Assembly: GCA_964622235.1 (NCBI GenBank)
Contig: CAZUNB010000001.1
Coordinates: 9,360-73,359, forward strand
Reading direction: 5' to 3'
DNA: 64,000 nt
Source: an uncultured Candidatus Saccharibacteria bacterium
Lineage (GTDB): Bacteria > Patescibacteriota > Saccharimonadia > Saccharimonadales > JAGPDM01
Position numbers and translations under genes: made by a program. This document shows, one piece after another, positions 15,732-64,000 of this stretch. The notes below the pieces were generated by a model. The model was not told the origin of the DNA, made no database searches, and saw only the letters and a list, made by a program, of their open reading frames with translations. Within the stretch, counting starts at the first letter, position 1, and the number at the start of each line of letters is the position of its first letter.

Positions 15732-15825
15732 TGGCGGAGAGAGAGGGATTCGAACCCTCGAAGATGATTACTCACCTTACACGATTTCGAGTCGTGCGCC
15801 TTCAACCAGGCTCGGCCACCTCTCC
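15732..15825 (-). tRNA. tRNA-Ser (anticodon CGA), type II with long variable arm
   Basis: Reverse complement folds as acceptor GGAGAGG/CCTCTCC, D-arm, anticodon stem CACGA/TCGTG with loop CTCGAAA (anticodon CGA), a 20-nt variable arm, T-arm GAGGG-TTCGAAT-CCCTC, discriminator G, encoded CCA. It is followed by a CCA-rooted bipartite hairpin at 15690-15734. Confidence 0.8.
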
Positions 15826-34432: not shown

Positions 34433-35704
34433 ATGAATATTCTAATCATTGGTTCCGGCGGACGTGAACATGCCCTGGGGTGGAAGCTTTCTCAGTCGCC
34501 AGAAGTGAGTAAAGTTTTTTTTGCTCCTGGGAATGGTGGCACAAGCTTAGTCGGGGAGAATGTCGATATCGGTGTGTTGGAAATTGATAGGCTTCGCGAA
34601 TTCGCAATCGAAAATGGAATTGGATTTACAGTTGTTGGCCAAGAAGCTTCGTTAGAAGTTGGGATTGTCGATAGCTTCACTCGAGCTGGACTGGCTATTT
34701 TCGGCCCAACTAAATCGGCCGCTCAACTAGAAACCTCAAAAGTATTCATCGACCAGCTACTGGAAAAACATGACATTCCACGGCCGGAAAGCGTAGCGGT
34801 CGACAATATCGAGGATGGATTACGCTATATTAAAAATCGTGAACCAAGTAGCTACGTCATTAAAGCCGACGGGTTGGCCACCGGCAAAGGCGTAATTTTA
34901 CCAGACAGTGAAGAGGAAGCCTTGCGCGAATTAACGCGGATGATGAGTGGTGAGTCATTTGGAAAAGCGGGTGAGTCTGTCGTATTCCAGGAAAAGCTAG
35001 TTGGTCAAGAAGTTAGTGCTTTTGCCCTAAGTGATGGTGCCGACATCATTATGCTGCCATTCTTCCAGGACCACAAACAAGCTTACGACGGCGACACCGG
35101 ACCAAACACCGGTGGAATGGGCGCCTACACACCAGTTCCATTTTTAACAGATGAAATCAAACAGAAAATCCAAACCGAAATTATGCAAAAAACCGTCAAC
35201 GGAATGAAGACTGATGGCCACGAGTATCGCGGAGTTGTCTATGCTGGACTGTTCGTGAACGGGGAAGACGTCAAAGTAATTGAGTTCAATGCTCGTTTTG
35301 GTGACCCTGAGTGTCAACCGATGATGATGTCACTCGAGGAAGATCTTCTACCACTCCTACAGCAAGCTGCAGCTGGCAAATTCACTCAAACTGAGATTAA
35401 AACCAGTAGCGAAGCGATTGCGACAGTTTGCCTCGCTAGCGGCGGCTATCCATATGAGTATGAAAAAGGTAAAGAGATTTTTGGTCTTGATGGCGTCAGC
35501 AACACTGATATTGTCATCTTTCATGCTGGAACGAAGTTTGAAAATGATAAGTTTTATACCAATGGTGGGCGAGTGCTCAACGTAACTGCTCGAGCCGACT
35601 CAATGAAAGCCGCACTCAACAAAGCCTATTCGAAAATCGGTGAAAACGGTATCCATTTTGACCAAATGCATTTCCGATCTGACATCGGCTTCCGCGTTTT
35701 ATAA
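34433..35704 (+). CDS. purD: Phosphoribosylamine--glycine ligase (GAR synthetase)
   Basis: MNILIIGSGGREHALGWKL N-terminus, ATP-grasp core (IKADGLATGKGV...EFNARFGDPECQ) and a 423-aa length. Confidence 0.9.
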   Translation: MNILIIGSGGREHALGWKLSQSPEVSKVFFAPGNGGTSLVGENVDIGVLEIDRLREFAIENGIGFTVVGQEASLEVGIVDSFTRAGLAIFGPTKSAAQLETSKVFIDQLLEKHDIPRPESVAVDNIEDGLRYIKNREPSSYVIKADGLATGKGVILPDSEEEALRELTRMMSGESFGKAGESVVFQEKLVGQEVSAFALSDGADIIMLPFFQDHKQAYDGDTGPNTGGMGAYTPVPFLTDEIKQKIQTEIMQKTVNGMKTDGHEYRGVVYAGLFVNGEDVKVIEFNARFGDPECQPMMMSLEEDLLPLLQQAAAGKFTQTEIKTSSEAIATVCLASGGYPYEYEKGKEIFGLDGVSNTDIVIFHAGTKFENDKFYTNGGRVLNVTARADSMKAALNKAYSKIGENGIHFDQMHFRSDIGFRVL

Positions 35705-35772: not shown

Positions 35773-38700
35773 ATGCAAACAATCGAACAAAATCAACCTG
35801 AGACTATGCAACACCCTGACCACAGTGGTATCACTGCTGAAATCATCGCAGGAATCGGAGCCCTTGCCAGTCTTGATTTAGCAGTCAATAAACCTGGGTG
35901 GATTCGAAACATATCACCGCAGGATGTTATTGCTGGAGACTCTTTATCAGAATCTCTCGGTTTGCCCGGCGAGAGAGAGCCGCATACAGACGACTGGCTA
36001 ACGGACGAGGACCGAACTGCAACTCAGGCAGCAATTAAGCGCATAACTAAGGAACAAAAAGAACACCAGAAAAAGCGGTTAGCCGAAGCCGAGCAAGAAG
36101 AAAACCCGGAAGCAAGAAGGGCACTAGTTCTAGACGCGTGGACACACAACCCAGACACAGCTAAAAGAGTGGTGGGTTTTTTAAACGAAAGAGCAAAGCG
36201 AACACCTTCAAGCCGCCCATACTCAAGTCCAGACAATCCGGTAATGTCTGACGATGAAATTATTGAAGCAAGCGAATCTTCAAAAGGATTTCAAAGAGCG
36301 GTTGAATGGTGTACGACTCTTCGACCTCGTTTAATTCTAGAACGCGGGACGAAAGAAATCCTTGAGAGTATGGTTGATAAAAATGCTCTCACCCAGTCTG
36401 TTGTTAGTATGGCTGATGCCGATCCTGATTCTTTTGTATATCACCTCGAAGATATCCGAGACATAATTGATGACCCAGAGGCATTCGAAGGTGCCGTCCA
36501 AAAGGCGGAGAGAAACCTACCAGAACAAACGCTAGAACGACTTACTCAAATGGTTATTGACGAAAAAGCAGCAGGCAAGCCATCAAGCCAAATGGAGGAT
36601 CTTGCAAGATCAATGCTTGTACGCATGCGTGATAAACCATTAAATGCAGAGACGCTAGCAAACATTATTCAAGCCAAAATATGGACAAAAGAGGAGGTAA
36701 CTAAGCAAGTTTCTGGCGTTGCATCAACAGCACACGGTATTAGCTACTATAACGACTTCGGCTACGACAGACTATCCAAAGTAATTTCACCAGAGATGGC
36801 TGAAACAGCTAAACAGGCAGCCATAACCGCGATTGAAGACAACCCCAAAATGCTTTGCAGAGTGGCAGAAATAGATAGCAACCAGTTTCATAACGATGAA
36901 CTGGTTACTAATGGCGGGGTCATGAGCCCTGAACTACTCAACAAAACTGCAGAAAAACTACTGACCGATCCAACGCAATCATTTGGATTTTTCACTGGAG
37001 AATATCTCTCAGAACTAACCCCCGAAATAGGAAGCAGGGTAATTGATCGAATTATCGAGCTCAGCACCGACTACTATCCGTCAGAAGAAATCATGGAAAA
37101 AGCAAGCGATGAACAGCTCGGTTCAATTCTTGGTAACTTTACCCAGCATAAGCCCGGATTTTTACTTTCAGTGGTGGAAAATAATGAACGAGCGCTGGCG
37201 ATAGTCTGTGCAATGCCGCCGGACAATAAGCTAGAAATAATGGGTAGATTAAGCACGTATAACTTAATTAAATCGTCTGAAACATTGGAAACAATTGGGG
37301 TCCCAGCTGAAATAGTCGCTCAACAAATCAAATACTCATTTGACCGTAGCCCAGACATGAGTAGCCTGGTCTCAATTACAGATAAAGGCTTGCTCCCTCC
37401 TGACGACATTAGTGGGATGCGCGATCGACTAGTCGAAGCAGTAGCATCCGGCGAGACACGACCAGAGCAGTTTGTTGCAAACCGCGACCTCGATATTGAG
37501 GTTTTTAGCGATGAAGAATTAACGGCAGCAATAGCTGCAATAGGTGAAGCTAATCCTGCGGCTGGTTTTGCTTGCGCACTTAAGAACCGGGGATATTATT
37601 CAAAAACTGAGATTGAAAAGATTATCAGTACCGCAATATCTGATCATCTCGATGATGATTTATTGTTAAGTGAAGTCTTTGCGAATGTCTACAGCGGTAA
37701 AGAACCTATAGTCAGCATTGTTGGTGGTTCTCGAGTTGCAGATTTCGTCCAAGGACTATCAAGCAAGCAGCTTGACGGCATAGCCTACCGCCAAAACAAG
37801 ATCGCTGCGACGATAGGGGTAGAGGGAACGAAAGCCTTAGCTCATAAAATTGTACAAGAAAATCCAGCTAGCTTACTACTTGAAGAGTTCCGTGATTTCT
37901 ATGCGTCATTTTATCCTGATTTTGACCCAGATAGTTTTAAGGTAGAAGATTTACCAGAAAACACCGAAGTAAAAGATCTAGGTGGAAAATATCTAGTCGA
38001 TAAATGGAAGAAATTACAAAGTTCAACTTCCGAAATTAGGAGGTCAGAGATAGCAACTGAACTATCCTCATTGTATCAAAAAATTAATGACATAAAACTT
38101 AATGGCAATGCAGAAGGCGCCCAAAAAATAGTTGACTCGCTTAATGGCACCAAGGTAAGCCGGAGAGAAGTAATTGGATCTCTTTGGCTGTTTACTGAGC
38201 TGGGTGAAAATATGCCAGAATCAGTTGAAGCTTACAGTGATTTAGAAGAAATGCTAGTTGTCTCACTTGCAGATAAACTCGGTATGGAGGAGCCCAATAA
38301 AGAGCAGGTCAAACTATTAGTTGAAAGTGGTTTCCGCGTGTATAGCTTTGGTGTTTACGCCAACGAACACATGAACCCAGCACATAAAGAGGTGCTAGGT
38401 GCAATCCTAAAGTCTAGCTTGGATGAGAATTTTACAGAATGGAAATACGGTGGGGATACTGAAGACGATCTTGAGCATCTTAAGTCTAGCGGTCTCGTAC
38501 CCGAGAGTTTAACGTTAGACCAGTACCTAGCTTGGCAACATGACGAAACCACCGAAACGAGCATCGGGCTAGAACTTGGAGCATCAACAGCGCTTGCAGC
38601 CATCTCAGACACCATGACCGGCTACCAACCAGAACTCTTAATGACAGCTGCAGAAACAGACTATCAAGAGATAAAAGGTGAACTGCAAAGTATGGGGAAA

Positions 38701-39576
38701 ACTTTTGGACAAGTCCACGGAAAGCTTAAAAGGCTAAGAGTACTGAGAGATGATGCTCTAGAGGGAAGCAGAGAATACTCAAGAATTTCACTTAGTATAG
38801 ACGAACTTGACGAAGAGATTAAAGACCTCAACCAAGAAAAGTCTCAACTGCAACAATTGTTTGACGTGAAAACTTTACTAGATTTGTCGCTTAATCAGAT
38901 AAATGCAGGGAAAGTACAGGATGAAAAGGGAAGAGACAGAGACATTGGCGACCTACTAAATCGTTTATCAAAAAATACGCCGAAGTCTTACGCATTTATT
39001 ATCGGGTCCGTCGAAGATACCCTGGAGAACTTTAGAAAACAAAATAGCGGTGTAATGAATGTCTCCGTGGTAGACACTGCTGATTTATCAACAACCATCG
39101 AAATTGGGGCCTATCCTGCCGCATCGTGTCAACACTTTGATGGTGGTGTGGTAAATGAAGCCCTACTTGGATACACGGAGCCAACAACAAAACTATTGGT
39201 CGCCAAGAACGACAAAGGCACCCCAGTAGCAAGATCCGTCTTTAGGCTCATGACCAACAGTGAAGGCCAAACGTCTCTTCATCTTGAAAATGTGTATGCG
39301 GCGGAGCTAAGTGATGGAGTAATTTCCGCCATACTTATGGCAGCACATGCAAAAGCACAGGCAATGGGAGTCTCTCTTTTCGTCTCTTCAAAATCACAAG
39401 ATGCGGCCGGGAATATGATTCCAAATATTTTTGCGACATCTCCGATCCCACAAAAATCTACCGATACAAAGCTACGATCTACGGCAAGTATTCGCGCTCC
39501 ATCTATCTATGTAGACTCGAACGGAGGCTCAACGCAAAGACAGTACACATTAAATAAACTAGCTCTAATAGAGTAA
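35773..39576 (+). CDS. Large (1267 aa) soluble hypothetical protein, predominantly alpha-helical, no recognisable catalytic motif
   Basis: Uninterrupted 3.8-kb ORF with no TM helix, signal peptide or P-loop. It is acidic with a coiled-coil stretch around res 1020-1060 (EIKDLNQEKSQLQQLFD). Flanked by AT-rich promoter-like DNA upstream. Confidence 0.5.
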   Translation: MQTIEQNQPETMQHPDHSGITAEIIAGIGALASLDLAVNKPGWIRNISPQDVIAGDSLSESLGLPGEREPHTDDWLTDEDRTATQAAIKRITKEQKEHQKKRLAEAEQEENPEARRALVLDAWTHNPDTAKRVVGFLNERAKRTPSSRPYSSPDNPVMSDDEIIEASESSKGFQRAVEWCTTLRPRLILERGTKEILESMVDKNALTQSVVSMADADPDSFVYHLEDIRDIIDDPEAFEGAVQKAERNLPEQTLERLTQMVIDEKAAGKPSSQMEDLARSMLVRMRDKPLNAETLANIIQAKIWTKEEVTKQVSGVASTAHGISYYNDFGYDRLSKVISPEMAETAKQAAITAIEDNPKMLCRVAEIDSNQFHNDELVTNGGVMSPELLNKTAEKLLTDPTQSFGFFTGEYLSELTPEIGSRVIDRIIELSTDYYPSEEIMEKASDEQLGSILGNFTQHKPGFLLSVVENNERALAIVCAMPPDNKLEIMGRLSTYNLIKSSETLETIGVPAEIVAQQIKYSFDRSPDMSSLVSITDKGLLPPDDISGMRDRLVEAVASGETRPEQFVANRDLDIEVFSDEELTAAIAAIGEANPAAGFACALKNRGYYSKTEIEKIISTAISDHLDDDLLLSEVFANVYSGKEPIVSIVGGSRVADFVQGLSSKQLDGIAYRQNKIAATIGVEGTKALAHKIVQENPASLLLEEFRDFYASFYPDFDPDSFKVEDLPENTEVKDLGGKYLVDKWKKLQSSTSEIRRSEIATELSSLYQKINDIKLNGNAEGAQKIVDSLNGTKVSRREVIGSLWLFTELGENMPESVEAYSDLEEMLVVSLADKLGMEEPNKEQVKLLVESGFRVYSFGVYANEHMNPAHKEVLGAILKSSLDENFTEWKYGGDTEDDLEHLKSSGLVPESLTLDQYLAWQHDETTETSIGLELGASTALAAISDTMTGYQPELLMTAAETDYQEIKGELQSMGKTFGQVHGKLKRLRVLRDDALEGSREYSRISLSIDELDEEIKDLNQEKSQLQQLFDVKTLLDLSLNQINAGKVQDEKGRDRDIGDLLNRLSKNTPKSYAFIIGSVEDTLENFRKQNSGVMNVSVVDTADLSTTIEIGAYPAASCQHFDGGVVNEALLGYTEPTTKLLVAKNDKGTPVARSVFRLMTNSEGQTSLHLENVYAAELSDGVISAILMAAHAKAQAMGVSLFVSSKSQDAAGNMIPNIFATSPIPQKSTDTKLRSTASIRAPSIYVDSNGGSTQRQYTLNKLALIE

Positions 39577-42070: not shown

Positions 42071-42946
42071 TTATTTTGATTCAAGTCTTTTTTTGCTGAA
42101 TGCAATGAACACTATTGATAAAAATGCTAATCCAGCACTAGCTAGGTAGAGATGAGCAATGTTTGAACCAGTGGCTGGTAGCTGGGCGGAGGTTGGAGCG
42201 TTTCCCTCTGGTGCAGAAGAAGTAGTTTGGCTAGCAGATGCTTGACTAGCACAGCCAGCATCATCGTAAGTTAGCTCGGCAGTTTCGATTGTTGTTTGGG
42301 CGGTTGTGGTTTGACCACCAATCCATTGTTGAATGTAAATTCCAATGTCGTCCTGATTGTAGCCCGTAATATCCCAAGTTGCGTCAAGTCGACCTGCGTA
42401 GCCAAGACTGGCTGGGAAAAAATTAACACCATCACCTAAACCACGATCAACAGTAGCAAATGATGATTGGCCAAAGGCCACTGGAAGCCAAGTGTTTCCA
42501 TCCTCGCCAGTGGCAATCGTATAGTTATTAAGTAAAACCAAATCATTTGTGTTGTATAGACCCAGAAAAACACCTCCAACTGCTGCTTCATTTTGAGCTA
42601 TTGTGTTTGTTGTTAGCCGAATATTTTGTATTTGTGCTCCAGTGCAAAGAGAGGAGAGGTCGGCCCTCCAGCTATATCCAGCAGGAGGTTCAGCTGAGCT
42701 ACGGTCATCTAGATTTGTCGCTATATTGTTAGACGGATCTGTGATTACCACGCCAAGTTCAGAGACCAATTGCGAGCTTTCATCTGCAATGTGGATATCG
42801 TCATTGGCGGTAGTCGTATTAAGCTGAAGAGTCTGAGTAGCTGCCGAAACATTGATACCGCTTATACTGAAAATCAATAAAATACTTACAAACACTACAC
42901 CGCTAAGTTGTTTGATTCTTGTTGTTGAATGGTTTTCCACGCCCAT
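42071..42946 (-). CDS. LPxTG (LPATG) cell-wall-anchored surface protein
   Basis: N-terminal signal-anchor, then a Thr/Asn/Gly-rich beta-rich domain. C-terminal LPATGS plus hydrophobic helix plus KKRLESK tail. Confidence 0.6.
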   Translation of the reverse strand: MGVENHSTTRIKQLSGVVFVSILLIFSISGINVSAATQTLQLNTTTANDDIHIADESSQLVSELGVVITDPSNNIATNLDDRSSAEPPAGYSWRADLSSLCTGAQIQNIRLTTNTIAQNEAAVGGVFLGLYNTNDLVLLNNYTIATGEDGNTWLPVAFGQSSFATVDRGLGDGVNFFPASLGYAGRLDATWDITGYNQDDIGIYIQQWIGGQTTTAQTTIETAELTYDDAGCASQASASQTTSSAPEGNAPTSAQLPATGSNIAHLYLASAGLAFLSIVFIAFSKKRLESK

Positions 42947-52296: not shown

Positions 52297-52389
52297 TGGC
52301 GGAGAGAGAGGGATTCGAACCCTCGCGGGGCCGTGAAGCCCCCTACAGCTTTAGCAAAGCCGCCCCTTCAGCCACTTGGGTACCTCTCC
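52297..52389 (-). tRNA. tRNA-Ser (anticodon GCT), type II
   Basis: Reverse complement: GGAGAGG-TA-CCC...GGG-G-CGGCT-TTGCTAA-AGCTG-(21-nt variable arm)-GAGGG-TTCGAAT-CCCTC-TCTCTCC-G-CCA. Followed in minus orientation by the hairpin CCAATGTAAAAaCCCACCaaatGGTGGGcTTTTACATTGG (52259-52299). Confidence 0.8.
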
Positions 52390-52507
52390 TCGTCGTCACA
52401 TCAAGCTTCTGTGGTTTCGTTTTAGTCGTCGACTAAAAACTACTCCGCTGATGCTCCTCTTGAATTTTCAAACAGCTTCGCTTGGTTTGAAAATTCATGG
52501 CTGTACG

Positions 52508-52584
52508 TGGTGTACCCGGGGGGATTCGAACCTCCGACCTCTTGTACCGCAAACAAACGCTCTATCCAGCTGAGCTACGGGTAC
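52508..52584 (-). tRNA. tRNA-Arg (anticodon GCG), 77 nt
   Basis: Reverse complement: GTACCCG-TA-GCTC-AGCTGGATA-GAGC-G-TTTGT-TTGCGGT-ACAAG-AGGTC-GGAGG-TTCGAAT-CCCCC-CGGGTAC-A-CCA. The T-stem has one A-C mismatch (GGAGG/CCCCC) and GCG is an uncommon bacterial Arg anticodon, so confidence is moderate. Confidence 0.6.
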
Positions 52585-52645
52585 ACGCAAGCGTAGCAAC
52601 TATTGTAGCGCTAAACTACTGATAATAAAAGCAATCTGCGCATAT

Positions 52646-53260
52646 TTAGAGGTGTAGTTGGTTGATGGTTTTATCAATAAAATTCATTTCACGCTCTTCA
52701 AGTGGCAGATGGCGTTGTAAAATCGCGACAACTAGATCAACCTCTGCCTTCGTCATGTAAGCTTCGGTAGGCAAGCCAAAGCGTTTCAAAGGCCGGAAAG
52801 TTAGCAAATACAATCCACGCTCAGCTTGAATTGAAAATGAACGAAATGTTTCGAACGGAAACAAGGCATCGCCGATGGAGATCCCATCATCGTCGATGAT
52901 ATATGTTCGACTATTCGGCTTAGCATTGATAAAATACAATAAACCACCACTTAAGAGTAGTAAAACAACGACACTAAAGATGTCACGTTGCCAGTAAATT
53001 ATACCCGCGCTGATTGCAAAAACCACTGACACGAAGCCTGCGTACCACCCTATACCTCGTTGATGTGAAATATACTCGCTGGCTTGCCAGCTAACTTCTT
53101 GCGGTTGATCCGGCCCCTTGACATCTGGCATTTCTGTTTGCAAATTGTCGTTACTGTTGTCATCATCTTCAGCTTCAAAACTCCAGCCAGCAGAATCATC
53201 CTGTTGATTGTCGGCAACTTTTGCATCCTCAGCTTGGTTGTTTGTCTTTTCCTCTGCCAT
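52646..53260 (-). CDS. Hypothetical membrane protein (acidic disordered N-terminus, 2 TM, C-terminal soluble domain)
   Basis: 204 aa. Asp/Glu/Gln-rich first about 60 aa, two hydrophobic helices (GWYAGFVSVVFAISAGIIYW, FSVVVLLLLSGGLLYF), and a C-terminal about 90 aa with possible bacterial-PH-like character. Confidence 0.4.
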   Translation of the reverse strand: MAEEKTNNQAEDAKVADNQQDDSAGWSFEAEDDDNSNDNLQTEMPDVKGPDQPQEVSWQASEYISHQRGIGWYAGFVSVVFAISAGIIYWQRDIFSVVVLLLLSGGLLYFINAKPNSRTYIIDDDGISIGDALFPFETFRSFSIQAERGLYLLTFRPLKRFGLPTEAYMTKAEVDLVVAILQRHLPLEEREMNFIDKTINQLHL

Positions 53261-53475
53261 ATCATAAGCAGTATAACAAAACTAGACAAAAACCACACTA
53301 GCAAGAGTACCGTTATATCCTTTGAGATGATATAATCCAATGTACGTTTCGTTCGAGCGAAATACATCAAACTGAAAAGGTGACCAGACTAGTGTCAGGT
53401 AAAACTTGATCTAAATAGCGAACTGGTATACTTAACCAGTGAGTGTCGCGGAGCGAGGTCAACTCGCAACAACGT

Positions 53476-53566
53476 GGAGAGGTGACCGAGCGGTTGAAGG
53501 TACCGGTCTTGAAAACCGGCAAGGCGTAACCCGTCTTCGAGGGTTCGAATCCCTCCCTCTCCGCCA
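53476..53566 (+). tRNA. tRNA-Ser (anticodon TGA), type II
   Basis: GGAGAGG-TG-ACC-GAGCGGTTGAA-GGT-A-CCGGT-CTTGAAA-ACCGG-(19-nt variable arm)-GAGGG-TTCGAAT-CCCTC-CCTCTCC-G-CCA. ORF-track entries 53367-53567 and 53395-53580 (-) overlap it and are spurious. Confidence 0.85.
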
Positions 53567-55564: not shown

Positions 55565-56005
55565 TTATGATTGAGGAGCAAGGCTTGATGTCAGGAAGTT
55601 GACAGCACCAAAAGCTATGAAAGAAATGATAAGGCCGATAATCGCATACAAAATTGTATTCTTAGCTCCGGTAACTGCATTTTGGTCGCCGGCACTGATA
55701 ACATAACGGAAACCACCAACAATCAACATGATGACACTAACAGCGCCAACCAAAAAGAGCAAAATATTGACTACCTTGTTGAAAATACCATCCGCCCCGA
55801 AAAGTGTGTTCGCGTCTTGACCGGCTCTAGTGCTACCAATCGTGCATTTGGTTCCATTCACTAGTGGGTTTGTGTCGGTACCGATGCTAAGACATTCATC
55901 AGCTGCGGCAGCAGGAACAACGTATGTCATAAAACCAACAAACCCCATAGTTGTAGCTAGGCTAATCTTGCCAGTGGTTGATTGATAAAGTGTTTGTATA
56001 GTCAT
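55565..56005 (-). CDS. Secreted protein ending in a two-helix pilin-like module (TrbC/VirB2-type topology), paralogue 6 of 6
   Basis: Signal peptide (…VVPAAAADEC), a Cys-containing 55-aa segment, then VVNILLFLVGAVSVIMLIVGGFRYVISAGDQNAVTGAKNTILYAIIGLIISFIAFGAVNFLTS (helix-loop-helix). The loop GDQNAVTGAKN is shared across paralogues. Confidence 0.5.
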   Translation of the reverse strand: MTIQTLYQSTTGKISLATTMGFVGFMTYVVPAAAADECLSIGTDTNPLVNGTKCTIGSTRAGQDANTLFGADGIFNKVVNILLFLVGAVSVIMLIVGGFRYVISAGDQNAVTGAKNTILYAIIGLIISFIAFGAVNFLTSSLAPQS

Positions 56006-56089
56006 TAAATTTTTTCCTGTTTATGCTTATTGTTAAATGTATCAAAAATTCATACTGGGTGCAAGAGATATATAGGCGGGCGCCTGATT

Positions 56090-56497
56090 TTATAGACTGC
56101 TAACTATAAAGCTCACAGCGGCACGACCAAGGAAAGCAATTACTAATCCGATTACTGCATACAAAATTGTATTCTTAGCTCCGGTAACTGCATTTTGATC
56201 ACCAGCACTAGCAACATAGCGAAAACCACCAAGAACAATCATGATAACTGAGACTGCACCGACTAAGAACAGTAAGATATTGATAATACTCTGCATGATA
56301 GTCCCTATGTTGCGGCTGTCTCCTGAAGTACAAGTTCCTCCGGAGTATGTCCCGCCCGTTCCCTTACAGAGCTGCTCCTTAGAGTCGGCAGCACTTACTA
56401 TGCTGTGCTGACCGCTGGGGGTAGTGACTGGAAGAATAACCGATGCTATTAATAGAGAAAATGCGAACATAAATGTAAATAATGATATTTTTTTCAT
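56090..56497 (-). CDS. Secreted protein with C-terminal pilin-like module (TrbC/VirB2-type), paralogue 5
   Basis: Signal peptide, CKGTGGTYSGGTCTSGD Cys/Gly segment, then IINILLFLVGAVSVIMIVLGGFRYVASAGDQNAVTGAKNTILYAVIGLVIAFLGRAAVSFIVSSL. Nearly identical to the module of paralogue 6. Confidence 0.5.
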   Translation of the reverse strand: MKKISLFTFMFAFSLLIASVILPVTTPSGQHSIVSAADSKEQLCKGTGGTYSGGTCTSGDSRNIGTIMQSIINILLFLVGAVSVIMIVLGGFRYVASAGDQNAVTGAKNTILYAVIGLVIAFLGRAAVSFIVSSL

Positions 56498-56509
56498 CTC
56501 TTATCCTTT

Positions 56510-56899
56510 TTATATGTTACTTAATACGAATGATACGATAGCTTGAGCTAGAAGCGCAACCACTAAACCGACTACAGCATACAGAATAGTGTCTTTGCTC
56601 TGTTTGACGGCATTCTGATCACCATTACTAATCACAAAACGAAACCCACCGTATATCATGGCGATGACCGATACACTACCAACAATGAAGGCGAGGGCAC
56701 TAATTACCTTGTCGCGAAGTGGGGTAACGGCAGTTTCAACGGTATCGCTACAGGTTGCATCAGGATCTACCAGCTGCAATTTAGCACACGCATCATCTGT
56801 AGCAGCACTTGCAAACACGGCAGGAGCGGGTGCGACTGCTAGAAGAGCCAACTGCGCCAGCATCACAAACCCTAGCAATAAAAATGTCGGTGTTTTCAT
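56510..56899 (-). CDS. Secreted protein with C-terminal pilin-like module (TrbC/VirB2-type), paralogue 4
   Basis: Signal peptide (…AVFASAATDDAC), then VISALAFIVGSVSVIAMIYGGFRFVISNGDQNAVKQSKDTILYAVVGLVVALLAQAIVSFVLSNI. A 4-nt ATGA overlap with the upstream gene. Confidence 0.5.
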   Translation of the reverse strand: MKTPTFLLLGFVMLAQLALLAVAPAPAVFASAATDDACAKLQLVDPDATCSDTVETAVTPLRDKVISALAFIVGSVSVIAMIYGGFRFVISNGDQNAVKQSKDTILYAVVGLVVALLAQAIVSFVLSNI

Positions 56900-57699
56900 C
56901 CAAAGACTCCCTTCATAAATCCTATAACTACTCGAATAATAAAAGGCACAAGGAAGACAAGCGCAAGACCGATTGAACCATAAATGATAGTGTTTTTAGC
57001 GGCAACTATCTTTTCTGGGTTGCCGGCCGACAACACATAGCGCAGCCCACCCGAGAGAACGATGATAACACCAATGCTGCCAGCCAAAAGATAAACAACC
57101 GGTATAACCTTGCCGAGGAATGTTTTGTCGTCTACATTGGGTAGACTTAACTCATCAGCCGTTCCAAGCTTAACAATACCAGCAGGCGGTGCTTTCTTTG
57201 CAGGGGTTTTCGGGGTAGGAGAGGTGGGAGCCTCCGGAGCAGCACCGCCACCCCCGCCACCAACCGATTTTTTACAAACATCAACCTTAGTCTTGCCTGT
57301 TAGTTTCTCGCATTTTACATATTCTTCCGCAACACACGTAAGTTTTTTACTGTCGGTATCGAACGGTGGATTCTTCGTGCAATCTCGTGGCTTATACTCA
57401 CTGCCGACAGTGAATGGCTTACCAACAGTAAGAGATTTGCAGTCCTCAGTTTTTACCCCGGCACCTCCAGCAGTTGCAAACAGAACATAGCACTTTTTTG
57501 GATCTTGTTTACCTTTGTCTTTGAAGTAGGATTTAAAGACAGCGTTATTACAATCTCCAGCCGTAACTTTATCACCAGATAGATAGCAACCAGGTGATGA
57601 TGCTGCGGATACCTTTACTCCGCTAGCAAAAAGTGAAAGTGTGGCAATCGCCACTACCATCAATAGCAGCATGCTGCTTAGGCGTGAAATATTTTTCAT
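56896..57699 (-). CDS. Pilin-module fusion protein: signal peptide + Cys-rich ectodomain + poly-Gly/Pro linker + C-terminal pilin-like module (start set at MKNISRL)
   Basis: 267 aa. About 10 Cys in the ectodomain, a GGGGGAAPEAPTSPTPKTPAKKAPPAG linker, then VIPVVYLLAGSIGVIIVLSGGLRYVLSAGNPEKIVAAKNTIIYGSIGLALVFLVPFII. The ATG at 57699 forms an ATGA overlap with the stop of the upstream gene. Confidence 0.5.
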   Translation of the reverse strand: MKNISRLSSMLLLMVVAIATLSLFASGVKVSAASSPGCYLSGDKVTAGDCNNAVFKSYFKDKGKQDPKKCYVLFATAGGAGVKTEDCKSLTVGKPFTVGSEYKPRDCTKNPPFDTDSKKLTCVAEEYVKCEKLTGKTKVDVCKKSVGGGGGGAAPEAPTSPTPKTPAKKAPPAGIVKLGTADELSLPNVDDKTFLGKVIPVVYLLAGSIGVIIVLSGGLRYVLSAGNPEKIVAAKNTIIYGSIGLALVFLVPFIIRVVIGFMKGVFG

Positions 57700-58067
57700 T
57701 TGAAGGTCCCGAGAATCGTACCGACGGCAAAAGTGGCGCCAACACAAATCACCAAGCCAATCACCGCATTGACGATGGTGTCCTTGCCGCTCTTGACTCG
57801 CTCTGGGCTTCCGCTACTAATAAGAATTAGAAACGCGCCATAAAATGTAAAGCCAATCGCAACATATATGCCAGCACCGAGCAATGCCTGAACTATATTG
57901 CCGGCTATCCGCCAAATATTGTCAAAGTCTTCGATGATTACGCCGCACGGGTTCGATCCACCAGAGTCCCGCGGCAATCCATTATGCCATGCAGGAAGTA
58001 ACAAGAAGGTATTGTCGCACGCGTCAGCGGCGAACAAAGATAGTTTAGTTAATACGACGTGCATCAT
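57696..58067 (-). CDS. Small protein with C-terminal pilin-like module (divergent paralogue 2)
   Basis: 123 aa: ...IVQALLGAGIYVAIGFTFYGAFLILISSGSPERVKSGKDTIVNAVIGLVICVGATFAVGTIL. Same helix-(S/A)G(D/N/S)P/Q...K(N/D/T)TI-helix logic. ATGA overlaps on both sides. Confidence 0.45.
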   Translation of the reverse strand: MMHVVLTKLSLFAADACDNTFLLLPAWHNGLPRDSGGSNPCGVIIEDFDNIWRIAGNIVQALLGAGIYVAIGFTFYGAFLILISSGSPERVKSGKDTIVNAVIGLVICVGATFAVGTILGTFK

Positions 58068-59095
58068 CCGATTATACCCCCTGGTATTAGGAAGTTCACC
58101 AGCGCAGCGAACAATAAGTAGATTGCCAGTCCGCCGAGAGCAGCTAATATTTTAGTTTTTGCACCAGCAATCGCCTGAGGGTTACCACGAGCTGAAGCGT
58201 ACTGGATTCCCGCTATACCGAGCACCCCAGAGATGATGATGCCAACACCAACTGCAGTGACTTTAACGGCAAGTTTAAGCATTTTAACGATACTATTTCC
58301 CTCAAGCCCCGCGTCTGGGTCGCTACAAGTAAGATCTTTTAACGGCCCAAAAGCCGCTTGAGCACACTTATCTTGTTCAAGCTTGCGCGCACAACTTTGT
58401 TCATCGCCAGCAGCTAAGCTCCCGTCTTTGTCTTTATCACAAACGCTATGTTGTTTAGTTAACGGATGCACAGCCTTCTCGCCTTCATCTTCTGGCCCAG
58501 CAGGGTCATCACCCTCAGGTGTCGTTGCACCTCCGCCGCTGTCTTCACCACCGCCGCCGGGGGTGGGTGAAGTGATCGGATCAGTGGTGCCAGGACCAAC
58601 GCCGGTTGACGCTAAGCAGGCCGAAATTAAAACTTTCGAGACCTGCTTCATGCACGTAACATTAGAAGCCGCGACACAGCCGGCACTTGATCCTCTATCG
58701 CTGGTACATTTTTCAACACCAAAAAGCTGATGGTAGCAGCTCTCGGTTTGAATTGAGCCTTTACTGACATTGGGTATGTTCGTACAGTAAGCAATAAGCT
58801 TCCATGCGCAGGTTTCATATTTTTTTGCATCGTCTTTTTTAGGCTTTTGAGCTAAAAGCCTACTGCGTATCGCGCGACAATCATTTGCGGTCTTTTCACC
58901 AACACCAAAGTTCTTATCAACCTTGCCGCTTGGCCCTGAAGTTGTGGGGGTACTTGTATCACCACTGCCATTGCTACCACCGCCGAAAGAAACTCCCGGA
59001 ACTTGTGCAGAAACTTGTGCAGCTAAAAAGAACATCCAAAATAAAGATATCAAAAAAACCGATACAAAAACTGATTTACGCAATGAGCCCATCAT
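58064..59095 (-). CDS. Pilin-module fusion protein: signal peptide + Cys-rich / Gly-Pro-rich ectodomain + C-terminal pilin-like module (paralogue 1)
   Basis: 343 aa. Signal peptide (…AAQVSAQVPG), about 12 Cys, the TSPTPGGGGEDSGGGATTPEGDDPAGPEDEGE acidic/Gly linker, then VTAVGVGIIISGVLGIAGIQYASARGNPQAIAGAKTKILAALGGLAIYLLFAALVNFLIPGG. Confidence 0.5.
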   Translation of the reverse strand: MMGSLRKSVFVSVFLISLFWMFFLAAQVSAQVPGVSFGGGSNGSGDTSTPTTSGPSGKVDKNFGVGEKTANDCRAIRSRLLAQKPKKDDAKKYETCAWKLIAYCTNIPNVSKGSIQTESCYHQLFGVEKCTSDRGSSAGCVAASNVTCMKQVSKVLISACLASTGVGPGTTDPITSPTPGGGGEDSGGGATTPEGDDPAGPEDEGEKAVHPLTKQHSVCDKDKDGSLAAGDEQSCARKLEQDKCAQAAFGPLKDLTCSDPDAGLEGNSIVKMLKLAVKVTAVGVGIIISGVLGIAGIQYASARGNPQAIAGAKTKILAALGGLAIYLLFAALVNFLIPGGIIG

Positions 59096-59634
59096 CTGTA
59101 TCCTACTTTCTGACCATCTTCATCAGTGAAATACATAGCTTTGATCTTTTTTGGACTCGAAAACTCCATCGTAATCAGCTGATTATCAGCATCCTCGAAT
59201 ACATTAGAGTTCGAACAGAAAATCTGAACTGTTTGTCTGTCCGCTGCCGGCTCACTGCAGTCTTCAAGGTTAAATCTACCGAGGAGCGTAGACAGAAAAT
59301 ATGCTGGCTGATAAAAGGGAATATCTTCACCGATTTCAAATTCAGGATTATAGTTCATGGTCGAGTAGTCGTTAATGCGCGCAGTGTCTAGATTCACAAT
59401 TGCATCGATCATTTCTTTTGATGTGTTTATTTGATCAAGCTCCTGAAGCGCTAAACTATCCTCGATTTTGGCTTGTTTAGCTTCAGCGGCGAGCTCAGCT
59501 TTAGTCGGCTGCTGTAAATACCAAGCTAAAAAACCGATTCCTCCAACCAAAATGATTGCCAATAAGATAAAAGGCCAACGAGGGACCTTCTGCGATGTCA
59601 TCAGTGCTTGTGAGTTATTTTTATTTTTGAACAT
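59092..59634 (-). CDS. Hypothetical bitopic membrane protein (first gene of the coupled pilin-module operon)
   Basis: 180 aa. N-terminal basic segment, one TM helix (WPFILLAIILVGGIGFLAWYL), then an about 130-aa extracytoplasmic domain. VirB8-like topology but smaller, with no motif. Confidence 0.4.
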   Translation of the reverse strand: MFKNKNNSQALMTSQKVPRWPFILLAIILVGGIGFLAWYLQQPTKAELAAEAKQAKIEDSLALQELDQINTSKEMIDAIVNLDTARINDYSTMNYNPEFEIGEDIPFYQPAYFLSTLLGRFNLEDCSEPAADRQTVQIFCSNSNVFEDADNQLITMEFSSPKKIKAMYFTDEDGQKVGYR

Positions 59635-59711
59635 TTTTATAATTCAACCATGAATTTAGTGCTATTGTAGCGCTTGTGGTATAAAGCCGCAAGCTAGAAA
59701 AAATTTAGCAC

Positions 59712-59740
59712 TTGACAATACTGAACTAATGTAAGATAAT
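59712..59740 (+). promoter_or_regulatory. Sigma-70-like promoter candidate (TTGACA-17 nt-GATAAT) in the divergent region between the pilin operon and the 59770 gene
   Basis: TTGACA at 59712-59717, an exact 17-nt spacer, GATAAT at 59735-59740, 30 nt upstream of the ATG at 59770. Confidence 0.35.
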
Positions 59741-59769
59741 GCATAGATTAAACAGGAATAACCATAGCT

Positions 59770-60711
59770 ATGACAATCACTCCAACAGACATACCACTAT
59801 CTGGAGAAGGCGGCGAAGAGCAAGTGCCACCTATAGGTGAACAAGGGCAGCAGCCTGACGGACAACCATTTGATGGCATGGGTGATGCGCTGGATGGTGA
59901 TGCTGCCGAGCTACGAACCGATAGTGTGAGTGAGCAGCCGCCAGACGATTCAGCTGAAGAGATTGTCGTTAGCCCAAGCAATAGAAGGATGTCTCGTCGA
60001 GGATTCTTAGGAGCTGGAGCTGCGATCGTTGGTCTGACAGTAATTTTTGGCCCTAAAGTCGTCGACTCCTTTTCCCAGCCATCCGAACCAATCGCCCCAA
60101 CTGATGGATCTGATACAGACAATAGCCCGACTGACACGAGCGACACAGCGAAAGACACCTTACCCCAAATGGAAGAGTGGGACGGCACAAAAGAAGATCT
60201 GTGGGAGGTTGCTCCGGGGGATGCAAATAGGAACTTCTTCCTAGATCCATACGCCCCAAATTCATTCGACGCGGAGCAAGTTACTAAGAGAAACTTTGTT
60301 CGGTCCTTCGACCATATCGTTCTTGGGCTTCTTTACCAAGATAAACTAGGCAAAGACCCTAATGAATACGCAACTTTTTTCGCCAGTTCAGACGTAGCGA
60401 ATCAAGCTCGTGAATTTTTCGGTGACGGTGAAGGCACACATTCGGGTGCATACATCAGGGGCTTTAATGAAAATGTCGAGACGAAGGGTGAAGACCCGAA
60501 CGGTTTAGAAAAGTTAATGCTTGATGTTGTTCCGCCCCCTGGGAAAGAGGGCGCTGTTCAAATTGGGCTATTCGATCCAAAAAATGGAGAGAGATACAAA
60601 CCAGCTTGGGCTACTTTTGGTTATAGCAATAAAGGCCACTATGTCCTAACAGGCATTTTCGACCATGATCCAACAGATGAAGACTTTCTGTCTACGCCAC
60701 CGCTAGAGTAG
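59770..60711 (+). CDS. Hypothetical exported/membrane-anchored protein with internal twin-Arg motif (SRRGFLGAGAAIVGL)
   Basis: 313 aa. Acidic 73-aa N-terminus, then RRMSRRGFLGAGAAIVGLTVIFG (Tat-like S-R-R-x-F-L-G plus hydrophobic core), then an about 220-aa Asp/Thr-rich domain. An alternative start at ATG 59989 (MSRRGFLG, GAAGGA SD) would make the RR motif N-terminal. Confidence 0.45.
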   Translation: MTITPTDIPLSGEGGEEQVPPIGEQGQQPDGQPFDGMGDALDGDAAELRTDSVSEQPPDDSAEEIVVSPSNRRMSRRGFLGAGAAIVGLTVIFGPKVVDSFSQPSEPIAPTDGSDTDNSPTDTSDTAKDTLPQMEEWDGTKEDLWEVAPGDANRNFFLDPYAPNSFDAEQVTKRNFVRSFDHIVLGLLYQDKLGKDPNEYATFFASSDVANQAREFFGDGEGTHSGAYIRGFNENVETKGEDPNGLEKLMLDVVPPPGKEGAVQIGLFDPKNGERYKPAWATFGYSNKGHYVLTGIFDHDPTDEDFLSTPPLE

Positions 60712-60959: not shown

Positions 60960-62276
60960 ATGTTAGGTGAAATGAAAAAAATAAAAAAGATTATCTTTAC
61001 TGGTCTTGGAACATTTGTCGTATTGTTTTCTACAATCGTAGCTCCTTTGAGTCCATTGATAATAACGATTGATGCCGCGCCATATGATGATGCTATTGAT
61101 ATAACCACTAAAGAATACAAAGCATGGCGATCATGGCTAGTACTTGAAAAGTGCATAAACTTTAGTGGCAACAAGGGTGGCGACAAGGTCAAAAATGCTA
61201 TATTTGAGCACCCGAACTCAGGAACGATTCCGGCCAACTCGTTCGGTTGGCATAACACGAACTCGCTCGGTGGTGGAAATGGCGCGACGGATGGAGTTGG
61301 GAGATTTATCGATAAAAAGGACGGTGAGATTGACTGCAACACTGAGGCAGATCTTGAGATTGCCATGGCGAACCTCGGTTACAAGAAATATGGGGACTTC
61401 ATGAAAGCAATAACTTCTGATCAAAGACTCCCTGATGATATGTTTAAGCTTAAGTACTCTTCCGAAAAAGCTATTGGCGCGGCAGTAGCTAAACACGCTA
61501 AAGAAGAAGGCTTAATTAGGAGTGAAAGCAATCTCTTTACACTACCGGCCGAGTCAGTTTGGGTTTATTGGGCGTCACTCGCAATTGCAAAGGTTGAGAA
61601 CTCTGCATTTGGCAACACCGAAGGAACCTGTAAAGGAAAATTTGGTACTGAAGCGGACTTAAAAAAAGACAAGACCAGTGAGTCAAGTATTGTAAGGCCC
61701 GGCTTAATCGACAAGGACGCCAAAGAGATCGATGGCTGGAGCGATAAAGCTACAGAAAAAGGCTGGGAGTACCTTCTGCTGCCAGAGAAAAAAGCTAATG
61801 CTGCAGCTAATGCAATTGACGGAAGAATGACATCAGGCAAGTCGACATCATGCACCGAGATAGCCAAAGAAGCAACCAAGGATTTTCGGGTTGCAGCCTT
61901 CGCAAACTTGGTTAAAAAAATCAAAATAGAGTGTGAAAAAGATCCAAATGCCGACTGTGAAAGTAGTATCAAAGATTCCTCAGATGCCGCACTTCAAGAA
62001 GATGGGGCTGGTGACGATGACGTAGAGAGCTGCGAAGTTGGTTCGGGGTTATTTGCGAAAGCACTTGGTTTCGTTGTCTGCGCCGTTGTTGATATCACCT
62101 TCAGTATCGTTGACTGGGCAGAGAACAATATCATCATCCCATATCTTATCGTTTCTCCTCTAGAACAAGGCTCAGATTCGCCAGCCTATACAATGTGGGG
62201 CTATATGCGCGATATCTCTAATGTGATGCTGGTACTAGCCTTGCTATACTTAGCCTACTTAAAGGCGATGTCGTAA
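60960..62276 (+). CDS. Hypothetical membrane protein: signal/anchor + Cys-containing Lys-rich ectodomain + 2 C-terminal TM helices
   Basis: 438 aa. N-terminal hydrophobic helix (IIFTGLGTFVVLFSTIVAPL), an about 330-aa ectodomain with about 10 Cys, and C-terminal helices (LFAKALGFVVCAVVDITFSIV and MLVLALLYLAYL). The stop overlaps the next start (TAATG). Confidence 0.45.
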   Translation: MLGEMKKIKKIIFTGLGTFVVLFSTIVAPLSPLIITIDAAPYDDAIDITTKEYKAWRSWLVLEKCINFSGNKGGDKVKNAIFEHPNSGTIPANSFGWHNTNSLGGGNGATDGVGRFIDKKDGEIDCNTEADLEIAMANLGYKKYGDFMKAITSDQRLPDDMFKLKYSSEKAIGAAVAKHAKEEGLIRSESNLFTLPAESVWVYWASLAIAKVENSAFGNTEGTCKGKFGTEADLKKDKTSESSIVRPGLIDKDAKEIDGWSDKATEKGWEYLLLPEKKANAAANAIDGRMTSGKSTSCTEIAKEATKDFRVAAFANLVKKIKIECEKDPNADCESSIKDSSDAALQEDGAGDDDVESCEVGSGLFAKALGFVVCAVVDITFSIVDWAENNIIIPYLIVSPLEQGSDSPAYTMWGYMRDISNVMLVLALLYLAYLKAMS

Positions 62277-64000
62277 TGGGTGGCGGAAACGCAGCATACA
62301 ATCTTAGAAAGATGGCTCCGAGAATCTTGATTGCATTTATCGGGGTGCAATTGTCATTCTTTTTATCTTCACTAATGATCGATATTTTCAATGGGCTTGG
62401 TAGTGGTGTTGCCAACCTTTTTTACCAAATCGCTGACGCCAACAACATTCCGATTGTTGACACCACCGCAATACAAGGCGGTCAGCTCGGTCAAGGAGCG
62501 GCAATTTTGGGTCTGGGAACAGCGGCGGCGGCTGGAATCTTGACTACAGCCGCCGCGGGCGGTGGCATCATACCAGCCATGGTTGGGTTTGGCGTTATGG
62601 CCTTGATTGTTGTTATCGTGGCTGGCTTAACGTTGGTCCTGCGCCAAATCCTTATTATCGGATTAGTCATTGTATCCCCACTAGCATTTGTGGCCTACCT
62701 CATACCAAACCTCGAGCAATACTTCAAAAAATGGTGGTCATCCTACCTAAAACTACTGATGATGTATCCGCTAATCGTTGGGCTTTTTGGTGTTGGTAAG
62801 ATTGCCGGACAAATTGCCAGCATCACAGCCGCAAACGCACAAGGCACACCAGGTAATGGCGGTATTGCTAGCAGTCCTACGATGATTTTAATGGCGTTCT
62901 TAGCCAATGTTATTCCGCTCGGTCTCGTTCCATATACCCTCAAGTTCGGAGGGGGAATTATGGCTGCTGGAGGTAACATCGGCCGACAGCTCGGATCGAA
63001 AACAGGCAAGACTTTGCGCGATCCAAACAGCCGATTCTTAAGAAGCTCAAAAGACAATGCCGCTAAAAAAGGACAGCTCAAAAGAGACAGGCGGGTTCAG
63101 GGCCAACAATCCGAGGACGCCACAAACTATGGGCTTGGTCGAGCGCTAAAGAAGCTGCCAGGTAAGGGCGGAATAGCTAACGCGTATGCGGGTGCGCACA
63201 AAGCCGTAACAGGCAAAGAGGGTTTACTCTCCAATTTCCGAAGCGCCACCGCTAAACAAGCGCGACACGAGCGCCTCGAGGCAGGCAACGATGAGGCAAT
63301 AAAGCGCAGAGACGAAGCTGCAGCAGCAGCATATCGACCAGAGAAAGCCGTTGGAGCTGGTATATTTGCGCAAACTGGCGGCGACCATGATCTTATAAAA
63401 AAGAAGAGAAATGAACTAGAGGCAGCTGTTGAAGCAGGCGAGCAAGATCAAGTAGTTTTGGATGGGTTCAACGAAATGGCGCAGTATGAAGGTAACGATG
63501 AGGCAGTCTTTGCGGCAGCTCGCTTTGCAATGCAACACGACAAAGCTGGATCCAACATGACGGAAAGAGGAGAATTCTTAAATAATGTCATTCAGAATGT
63601 TGATACTTCAACCGAGGGAGGCAAGGCACGAGCAGCGGCCTTTGTCGCTTCGACAGCAGGCATCGGACACCCATACAGTAAAGACATTGGCATGACCTTC
63701 GACGGAGAAGGCCCTGACGCCAAACCTGTTATTAACTTCGGCTCTAAGGCCGGCAAGGGCTATAACGCAGAACAAGGCTTCGCCTATGCAATGTCTAAAC
63801 ACCAAAGCTACAATCTTAGCAACCTCAACGATGGCCAGGTTACAGAACTGCTTGATCATAACGTACGCCTGGCGACAGACAGCTCCTATGCCACTATGGA
63901 GTCACTACGAACTGGCAAGTCAGTTAAAGCAGTTCAAGGGAATGCCGAGAAGAATATTCGGGATATGTACAGTTACAACGCCCAGTCTAGAGCTGGTCTC
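62276..64000 (+). CDS. Polytopic Gly-rich membrane protein with long hydrophilic C-terminal region, TrbL/VirB6-like candidate (partial, runs off the window end)
   Basis: My own translation from ATG 62276 stays open to the window end (at least 574 codons). The ORF track does not list it because there is no stop. N-terminal about 250 aa form 5-6 hydrophobic helices with Gly-rich loops (GGQLGQGAAILGLGTAAAAGILTTAAAGGGIIPAMVGFGVMALIVVIVAGL). The rest is charged and Ala/Lys-rich. Confidence 0.45.
   Translation, partial: MGGGNAAYNLRKMAPRILIAFIGVQLSFFLSSLMIDIFNGLGSGVANLFYQIADANNIPIVDTTAIQGGQLGQGAAILGLGTAAAAGILTTAAAGGGIIPAMVGFGVMALIVVIVAGLTLVLRQILIIGLVIVSPLAFVAYLIPNLEQYFKKWWSSYLKLLMMYPLIVGLFGVGKIAGQIASITAANAQGTPGNGGIASSPTMILMAFLANVIPLGLVPYTLKFGGGIMAAGGNIGRQLGSKTGKTLRDPNSRFLRSSKDNAAKKGQLKRDRRVQGQQSEDATNYGLGRALKKLPGKGGIANAYAGAHKAVTGKEGLLSNFRSATAKQARHERLEAGNDEAIKRRDEAAAAAYRPEKAVGAGIFAQTGGDHDLIKKKRNELEAAVEAGEQDQVVLDGFNEMAQYEGNDEAVFAAARFAMQHDKAGSNMTERGEFLNNVIQNVDTSTEGGKARAAAFVASTAGIGHPYSKDIGMTFDGEGPDAKPVINFGSKAGKGYNAEQGFAYAMSKHQSYNLSNLNDGQVTELLDHNVRLATDSSYATMESLRTGKSVKAVQGNAEKNIRDMYSYNAQSRAGL

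Follow-up and report, generated by a model that had tools for sequence, protein, structure and literature searches.

The 64,000-nucleotide stretch of DNA analyzed here (the window) comes from an uncultured Candidatus Saccharibacteria bacterium, and its region 55565-59634 holds seven minus-strand open reading frames (ORFs) of 146, 135, 129, 267, 123, 343, and 180 aa, six of which end in one shared two-helix module. We consider it very probable that this is a VirB2-like pilin array of a chromosomal, monoderm-type type IV secretion system (T4SS) of Saccharibacteria (Patescibacteria). The pilin-array phenomenon has already been published for Saccharibacteria and the window locus is a further example; the sole new element of the present analysis is a positional-orthology result, in which the first two or three array positions, compared by sequence across genomes, are position-specific orthologue classes. 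The genes of the region are as follows.

55565-56005, minus strand: core pilin, last gene of the array, 146 aa; PF18895 35.7 bits
56090-56497, minus strand: core pilin, structure-predicted representative, 135 aa; PF18895 41.7 bits
56510-56899, minus strand: core pilin, 129 aa; PF18895 36.4 bits, TrbC 17.4 bits (sub-threshold)
56896-57699, minus strand: position-3 pilin, 267 aa; PF18895 35.6 bits at residues 193-258
57696-58067, minus strand: position-2 pilin, 123 aa; PF18895 43.2 bits, TrbC 16.1 bits (sub-threshold)
58064-59095, minus strand: position-1 pilin-like gene, 343 aa; PF18895 15.6 bits, local profile hidden Markov model (HMM) 26.1 bits
59092-59634, minus strand: first gene of the operon, 180 aa, single-pass membrane protein having no pilin module

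The length of 267 aa is counted from the ATG at 57699, and the version started from a TTG has 283 aa. The minus strand reads ATGA at the junctions 59092, 58064, 57696, and 56896, and five genes are thus chained; at the two remaining junctions the genes are separated by 12 and 84 nt, the 84-nt gap preceding the 146-aa gene. An original prediction, made from the sequence alone, had reported this seven-gene minus-strand set with four ATGA overlaps; the ORFs and junctions match, and the array is confirmed as it was described there. The further argument that the overlaps imply a fixed stoichiometry does not follow, because overlaps of four nucleotides are frequent in related arrays but the junctions involved vary.

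Each of the six proteins has two C-terminal hydrophobic segments with a short polar stretch between them, and the six modules are alignable across about 70 residues. When an HMM constructed from five modules was run on 602 six-frame ORF fragments of the window, the sixth module, that of the 343-aa protein, was the only other match (26.1 bits, E 2.7e-7). Since the next-best fragment had 6.5 bits, the paralogy of the six modules is far beyond chance, and both the HMM and the alignment bear out the prediction that six genes share one C-terminal two-helix module. The motif proposed for the module, GG(F/L)R(Y/F)V...K(N/D/T)(T/K)I, is strict in four genes, while the 123-aa and 343-aa genes carry loose versions of it (GAFLILISSGSPERVKSGKDTI and AGIQYASARGNPQAIAGAKTKI, respectively). 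The full-length identity between array paralogues is 23-54%, and the modules of the 135-aa and 146-aa proteins are 70-72% identical.

Signal peptides had been predicted for all six proteins. Read by eye, the N-termini of the 135-, 129-, 267-, and 343-aa proteins clearly resemble signal peptides and have A-x-A-type sites; that of the 146-aa protein is leader-like in a weaker form, and that of the 123-aa protein is very short and atypical (MMHVVLTKLSLFAA/D). In the 343-aa protein, the signal peptide is followed by an ectodomain of about 240 aa rich in Cys (12 Cys) and Gly/Pro, and the C-terminus is IPGGIIG. The 267-aa protein has a signal peptide, an ectodomain with 8 Cys, and a Gly/Pro-rich linker, followed by the two-helix module.

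The family assignment was obtained mainly from PF18895 (T4SS_pilin), which matches five of the six proteins with 35.6-43.2 bits, above its gathering score of 26.6. The 343-aa protein is below this score (15.6 vs 26.6 bits) and is not a member by that criterion alone; judged by its sequence, it is a divergent member, linked to the others through the local HMM and through homologues that carry PF18895 (P0128 and P0130). The signature of its subgroup, GIQYA..NPQA..AK.KI...IPGG, is conserved, IPGG being C-terminal. For the 135-aa protein, 834 homologues were found at E up to 0.001; PF18895 is present on all 120 matches listed, and some homologues are named "pilin" or "Type IV secretion system pilin" by their sources.

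Membership in the TrbC/VirB2 family PF04956 was not found, because the gathering score is 27.9 bits and the highest-scoring window proteins, of 129 and 123 aa, reach 17.4 and 16.1 bits, respectively. In an alignment of 61 sequences (57 database homologues and four window pilins), PF18895 matches 61 of 61 and PF04956 matches 31 of 61 at E up to 0.01, with a best E of 5.5e-8. By these profile matches, the window pilins are linked to TrbC/VirB2 at the superfamily level, and not by direct membership. The model for a Mycoplasma integrative and conjugative element (ICE) pilin-like family, NF045849, gave 23.3 bits (E 3.8e-5) for the 343-aa and 15.8 bits (E 0.0085) for the 267-aa protein, with a cutoff of 40. 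The organization expected of such pilins, i.e., a leader and two hydrophobic helices separated by a short charged loop, was found from the hydrophobic segments and the structure prediction, with the leader read by eye.

Identity with type IV pilins (T4P) or type II secretion system (T2SS) pilins was considered and rejected: no class III prepilin motif G/(F,M)xxxE is present in any N-terminus, no T4P family was found in the Pfam search, and the conserved hydrophobic helices are C-terminal, unlike the single N-terminal helix of T4P/T2SS pilins. A PHROG search of the array proteins matched no phage family, holins included, and the holin alternative fails for this reason. The original prediction had named TrbC/VirB2-type T4SS pilins, and not type IV pilins, and had regarded matches to holins or another family as its refutation. 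The PHROG scan matched none, and the Pfam HMM search proposed as a check gave PF18895 above the gathering score in five of six proteins and TrbC below threshold for two. PF18895, the PF04956 links, and the hairpin fold described below all agree with the TrbC/VirB2-type assignment.

The structure of the 135-aa protein was predicted by AlphaFold2 (AF2) using the 61-sequence alignment. Helices at residues 64-96 and 101-134 were predicted at a per-residue confidence (pLDDT) of about 90 and form the helical hairpin that had been anticipated; a leader helix occupies residues 4-20, and a small N-terminal unit composed of a helix and a beta-hairpin holds Cys44 and Cys56. Both cysteines (135-aa numbering) belong to the short N-terminal segment of the mature protein, and each has a conservation of at least 90% among the 61 pilins. 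The model suggests that this unit may be an outer knob stabilised by a disulfide, a feature that classical VirB2 does not have. For the 343-aa protein, with an alignment of 8 sequences, the prediction was poor (mean pLDDT 51.7, ectodomain mostly <50), and helices were predicted at residues 268-301 and 306-336. PDB profile searches with the alignments of six modules and of 61 sequences matched no pilin, giving only a MacB helix (E 0.057) and a V-ATPase subunit, and structure searches gave generic hairpins such as that of ATP synthase subunit c.

The T4SS genes lie on the other side of a divergent spacer. The DNA past base 64000 was read from contigs of five other samples (L002-L006), which match the window at 100% identity wherever the two overlap. 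A 776-aa VirB4-like ATPase is encoded starting some 3.7 kb beyond the window, near 67.7 kb in window coordinates, and has 386.2 bits to NF045971 (CD1110-family VirB4-like, cutoff 325), as well as matches to P-loop_TraG and AAA_10. The original prediction had correctly noted that no VirB4-type ATPase is present inside the window and had proposed inspecting the DNA beyond 64 kb; the VirB4 machinery found just there, on window-identical contigs, settles the doubt of that earlier reader. The order past base 64000 is the rest of a VirB6/TrbL-like gene, a 588-aa minus-strand gene, PrgI/VirB3, a TrsD/TraC-like gene, VirB4, and a giant gene with a VanY domain. The evidence for PrgI is firm (PF12666, 60 bits vs cutoff 27). 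The TrsD and VirB4 N-terminal similarities of the 288-aa TrsD/TraC-like gene are weak (E 2.5e-5 and 4e-6), far below the cutoffs, and the VirB6-like identity was taken from a precomputed PF19590 (TrbL_3) match of the identical gene in L002-L006, PF04610 (TrbL) being sub-threshold at 20.7 bits. The VirB6-like and TrsD-like assignments, both made by sequence similarity, are therefore weaker than that of PrgI. The locus thus has what is expected of a Patescibacteria-type T4SS, i.e., VirB4 adjacent to the pilin genes with TrsD-like, PrgI/VirB3, and VirB6-like partners. A VirB5 homologue was not recognised.

The domain scan covered most window ORFs with 100 aa or more and the six genes past the window end, several of these ORFs having no family, and no relaxase or coupling-protein domain was found; within this set, neither protein is linked to the T4SS. 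The remaining window is ordinary chromosome, encoding ValRS, GroEL, a Mur ligase, PGI, a RelA/SpoT-like protein, TsaD, and ABC transporters. Three genes of the window stand on the T4SS side of the spacer.

59770-60711, plus strand: 313-aa protein, no family
60960-62276, plus strand: 438-aa protein, no family; its stop overlaps the start of the VirB6-like gene
62276-64000, plus strand: VirB6/TrbL-like polytopic membrane protein, truncated by the window end (full length 632 aa)

The pilin operon and the T4SS cluster are divergent, both leading out of the 59634-59770 spacer. The best promoter-like site of the region is at 59712-59740 on the plus strand (11 of 12 matches), and the counts in the promoter and terminator scan are no higher than in shuffled sequence. 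The 313-aa and 438-aa genes occupy the interval from the pilin operon to the VirB6-like gene, where most related loci have no room for them. Neither protein has a Pfam, NCBIfam, or PHROG family, save a TAT-signal-like motif in the 313-aa protein (RRGFLGAGAA, residues 75-94), which stands behind an acidic N-terminus of 75 residues. Another metagenome contig, L001, matches the window at 100% identity between about 50960 and the end of the 438-aa gene, and then the identity falls to 79% in the VirB6/TrbL-like gene (window 62276-64000 vs L001 11317-13206, ratio of nonsynonymous to synonymous differences pN/pS 0.17), while the five other contigs stay identical. The drop reflects either recombination between strains, with its breakpoint at the T4SS channel gene, or a chimeric assembly.

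The 180-aa first gene is coupled to the first pilin, since its stop overlaps the start of that gene (ATGA). Its product has one hydrophobic segment at residues 17-42 and no Pfam, NCBIfam, or PHROG family, and only three homologues were found in 5.8 billion proteins. ORFs of similar architecture are present upstream of the array only in the loci L010, L017, and L026, with no tblastn match at E 1e-5. A VirB8-like role for this protein is a guess.

For a comparison across genomes, one genome per species was scanned with an alignment of three modules, and 20 related loci were obtained. All 20 are from Candidatus Saccharibacteria, Saccharimonadales, or Patescibacteria metagenome-assembled genomes, with module identities to the window of at most 70%, and in each complete locus 6-9 pilin genes stand in tandem on the same strand. 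The original prediction had regarded six pilin-like subunits as unusual; because every complete related locus has 6-9, which makes such numbers the norm in Saccharibacteria, six is the low end of normal, and multi-pilin arrays are already in the literature. Of the 20 loci, 13-16 show each of the T4SS genes (VirB4, TrsD-like, PrgI, and VirB6-like) flanking the array on one side, and 18 have HSP20 on the opposite side, usually followed by a phosphoribosyltransferase gene; most loci missing a T4SS gene or HSP20 are ended by short contigs.

The best non-self match of 130 out of 144 modules lies in another genome. The best match of the 123-aa gene is the position-2 gene in 18 of 19 loci, and its cluster also includes the position-2 genes from three other arrays of six genes; that of the 343-aa gene is the position-1 gene in 11 of 19 loci. 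The 135-aa and 146-aa genes match best the last or second-to-last array gene elsewhere, the cross-genome best matches of the 146-aa gene being the last genes of related arrays (53-79% identity). Positions 1, 2, and 3 are clusters with one member per genome, the 267-aa gene forming its own cluster, and the distal genes, to which the 129-aa gene belongs, are one large and more homogeneous "core" pilin cluster. On average, two modules are 49% identical when their genes hold the same position in different genomes, 39% when they hold different positions in a single genome, and 36% in all other cases. On the basis of these cross-genome best matches and positional clusters, the array appears to be an old set of differentiated paralogues. 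Within the distal core group, there looks to have been some recent duplication (135 vs 146 aa). The positional orthologue classes favour fixed subunit roles over recent amplification. The ectodomain of the 343-aa protein was found only in three close relatives; since homologues of this ectodomain and of the whole 180-aa protein are limited to a few close relatives, both evolve fast. The contigs of the five other samples are identical across the whole array, and there is no strain-level variation from which diversifying selection could be measured.

Assembly of the proposed pilus can be outlined by analogy with VirB2/TraA pilins. The precursors would be exported by Sec and their leaders cleaved, and the cytoplasmic membrane would store the hairpin, its two termini lying outside and its short basic loop (R..K) inside. 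A VirB4-powered machine would then pull the subunits out and stack them into a tube, with the loop lining the lumen and the N-terminal extension on the outside. The distal 129-, 135-, and 146-aa genes would supply the bulk (shaft) subunits, and the divergent proximal 343-, 123-, and 267-aa genes specialised minor or tip subunits; the Cys-rich, fast-evolving ectodomains of two proximal proteins (343 and 267 aa) could contact the host bacterium. In Southlakia epibionticum, a pilin series within the T4SS cluster has been reported to be essential, and neither a relaxase nor a type IV coupling protein (T4CP) is linked to that cluster (Wang et al., 2023; PMC10633639). Because no linked relaxase or T4CP was found among the ORFs scanned here either, and because S. 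epibionticum requires its T4SS and pilin series, the structure, by analogy, probably serves host-dependent epibiotic growth, as a conduit or an attachment device, and not conjugation.

Several points weigh against the pilus interpretation. All window proteins are under the TrbC gathering score, signal-peptide cleavage and topology were judged by eye, and the split into major and minor subunits is our inference from clustering. Monoderm T4SSs are otherwise without VirB2 pilins (PMC12102498). A pilus of these proteins has been seen in no Patescibacterium, so that pilus assembly here is an unproven proposal.

A more specific form of the proposal would make the array one heteromeric structure with fixed roles, in which the core pilins form the shaft of a tube of about 9 nm pushed by the T4SS into the host, positions 1-3 form its tip or base, and the ectodomains of the 343- and 267-aa proteins give host specificity. 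A tube width of 8.6-9.0 nm equals that of conjugative pili. Cryo-electron tomography of Mycosynbacter, a Saccharibacterium, has visualized tubes 8.6-9.0 nm wide and 60-70 nm long that have a barb at the tip and start from the inner membrane, which their authors did not attribute to a T4SS (PMC11880426). As a product of the pilin array, these tubes are a lead, and the whole picture, including the identity of this "lance with a barb" with the structure proposed here, is tentative and on balance doubtful.

The proteins might instead be membrane-resident parts of the T4SS translocon or envelope channel that are never extended into a filament, since a monoderm need only cross its wall. The absence of pili from monoderm T4SSs, the strong hydrophobicity of both helices, and the weak NF045849 matches of the 343- and 267-aa proteins are in line with this, but 6-9 differentiated copies with large outward ectodomains are hard to explain as channel parts. 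Moreover, homology points to pilus-forming TrbC/VirB2, and the tubes in the tomograms, not assigned to a T4SS by their authors, arise from the inner membrane of a Saccharibacterium (PMC11880426). We regard a channel-only role as unlikely.

Somewhat less likely still is that the six genes are alternative pilins, tandemly amplified and diversifying for surface variation or host-strain matching, and do not assemble together. This was put forward by the authors of a census of VirB2-like genes (PMC12102498), and several properties of the locus suit it: the low identity within the array noted above, the near absence of homologues of the 343-aa ectodomain and the whole 180-aa gene beyond close relatives, the partial clustering of distal core pilins by lineage, and the resemblance of the 135- and 146-aa genes to a recent duplicate pair that has the same last gene as best match. 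The positional classes, together with modules that are mostly closest to a gene of another genome, argue for differentiated subunits instead, as does the translational coupling of five genes in one operon. Redundant pilins would not predict the reported essentiality of the S. epibionticum series, and the array shows no visible strain-level variation, being 100% identical in the contigs of five other samples.

That the genes are unrelated small membrane proteins (holins, bacteriocin-immunity proteins, or transporter fragments) resembling pilins is close to refuted: two-helix hydrophobic modules carry little information, family members weakly match DctQ and DUF6112, and structure searches return generic hairpins, but five genes and every aligned family member exceed the PF18895 gathering score, PHROG gave no match, and the linkage to VirB4/VirB3/VirB6 is conserved in 13-16 of 20 related loci.

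Comparison of the VirB2-like pilin array with known systems places it closest to the arrays of S. epibionticum ML1 (SEML1_0006-0019) and Nanosynbacter lyticus TM7x (the "Sec-secreted array"), a likeness drawn from published descriptions. As in the window, tandem divergent VirB2-like pilins of Saccharibacteria are located in or beside a monoderm-type T4SS (VirB4, TrsD, VirB3, and VirB6) to which neither a relaxase nor a coupling protein is linked. The window lineage differs in being uncultured, with the nearest species-representative genomes at no more than about 70% identity in the best-conserved pilin module, and in having the extra coupled 180-aa gene and the divergent 313- and 438-aa genes, which most related loci do not have. 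Essentiality is known only for S. epibionticum, and not for the window lineage. A 2025 FEMS review described the six VirB2-like pilins of S. epibionticum as conserved in structure and divergent in sequence, possibly forming a pilus (PMC12857230).

The census, which relied on PF18895 and PF04956 as we did, compiled VirB2-like genes from 1,948 assemblies and 441 arrays of 2-11 such genes in Patescibacteria, especially in Saccharimonadia and Microgenomatia (Quinonero-Coronel et al., 2025; PMC12102498). The window array of six is within this range, and its maximum full-length identity of 54% equals the reported maximum. The census reads arrays as possible antigenic or host-range variation, whereas the proximal positions in the window are conserved orthologue classes and point to differentiated structural roles. 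The virB2 clusters of Bartonella and Anaplasma phagocytophilum, as far as they are covered in the census (PMC12102498), are similar in having tandem VirB2-like genes with a non-conjugative T4SS in a host-dependent bacterium. Those are diderm intracellular animal pathogens, whose paralogues are thought to serve antigenic variation, while the order and classes of the window genes are conserved across genomes.

With the diderm TrbC/VirB2/TraA pilins (PF04956; T-pilus, RP4, and F pili), the window pilins have in common a leader, two helices, a short basic loop, and VirB4, and the sequence likeness is weak but recurrent (sub-threshold in the window, E down to 5.5e-8 for family members). They differ in a monoderm host with a T4SS of the Gram-positive kind (MPF-FATA-like, CD1110-type VirB4), which is normally pilin-free, in mature proteins that add an N-terminal disulfide-type unit or large ectodomains, and in having six genes in place of one major pilin. 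The Mbov_0395 family (NF045849) is also a small two-helix pilin-like protein of a wall-less or monoderm T4SS, but it is a single gene in a mobile element, while the window has a chromosomal array that scores far below the cutoff of that family.

Other features of the window were registered as well. Three tRNA genes, tRNA-Ser(GCT), tRNA-Arg(GCG), and tRNA-Ser(TGA), are clustered at 52297-53566, 2 kb from the pilin array, and a fourth, tRNA-Ser(CGA), is located at 15732-15825. The 852-aa protein at 8831-11389 (minus strand) is composed mostly of NHL/beta-propeller repeats (NHL 208 bits) and is possibly a surface protein. The 291-aa protein at 42071-42946 (minus strand) carries an LPXTG cell-wall anchor motif at its C-terminus (23 bits against a cutoff of 20), and no sortase was seen among the ORFs scanned. 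A 1267-aa ORF at 35773-39576 (plus strand) has no Pfam family at E up to 1e-5. PurD (GARS) is encoded at 34433-35704 (plus strand) and an AIR-synthase-related protein at 17333-18430 (minus strand), in contrast to the usual description of Saccharibacteria as having no de novo nucleotide synthesis.

Saccharibacteria and other Patescibacteria live on host bacteria, and the one species tested genetically needs the T4SS and its pilin series to grow. The window locus adds one more instance of a T4SS of the Gram-positive type accompanied by VirB2-like pilins. The conserved proximal classes and the homogeneous distal core, obtained by comparison with 20 related genomes, lead to a model of major and minor subunits, unlike the published suggestion of antigenic variation.

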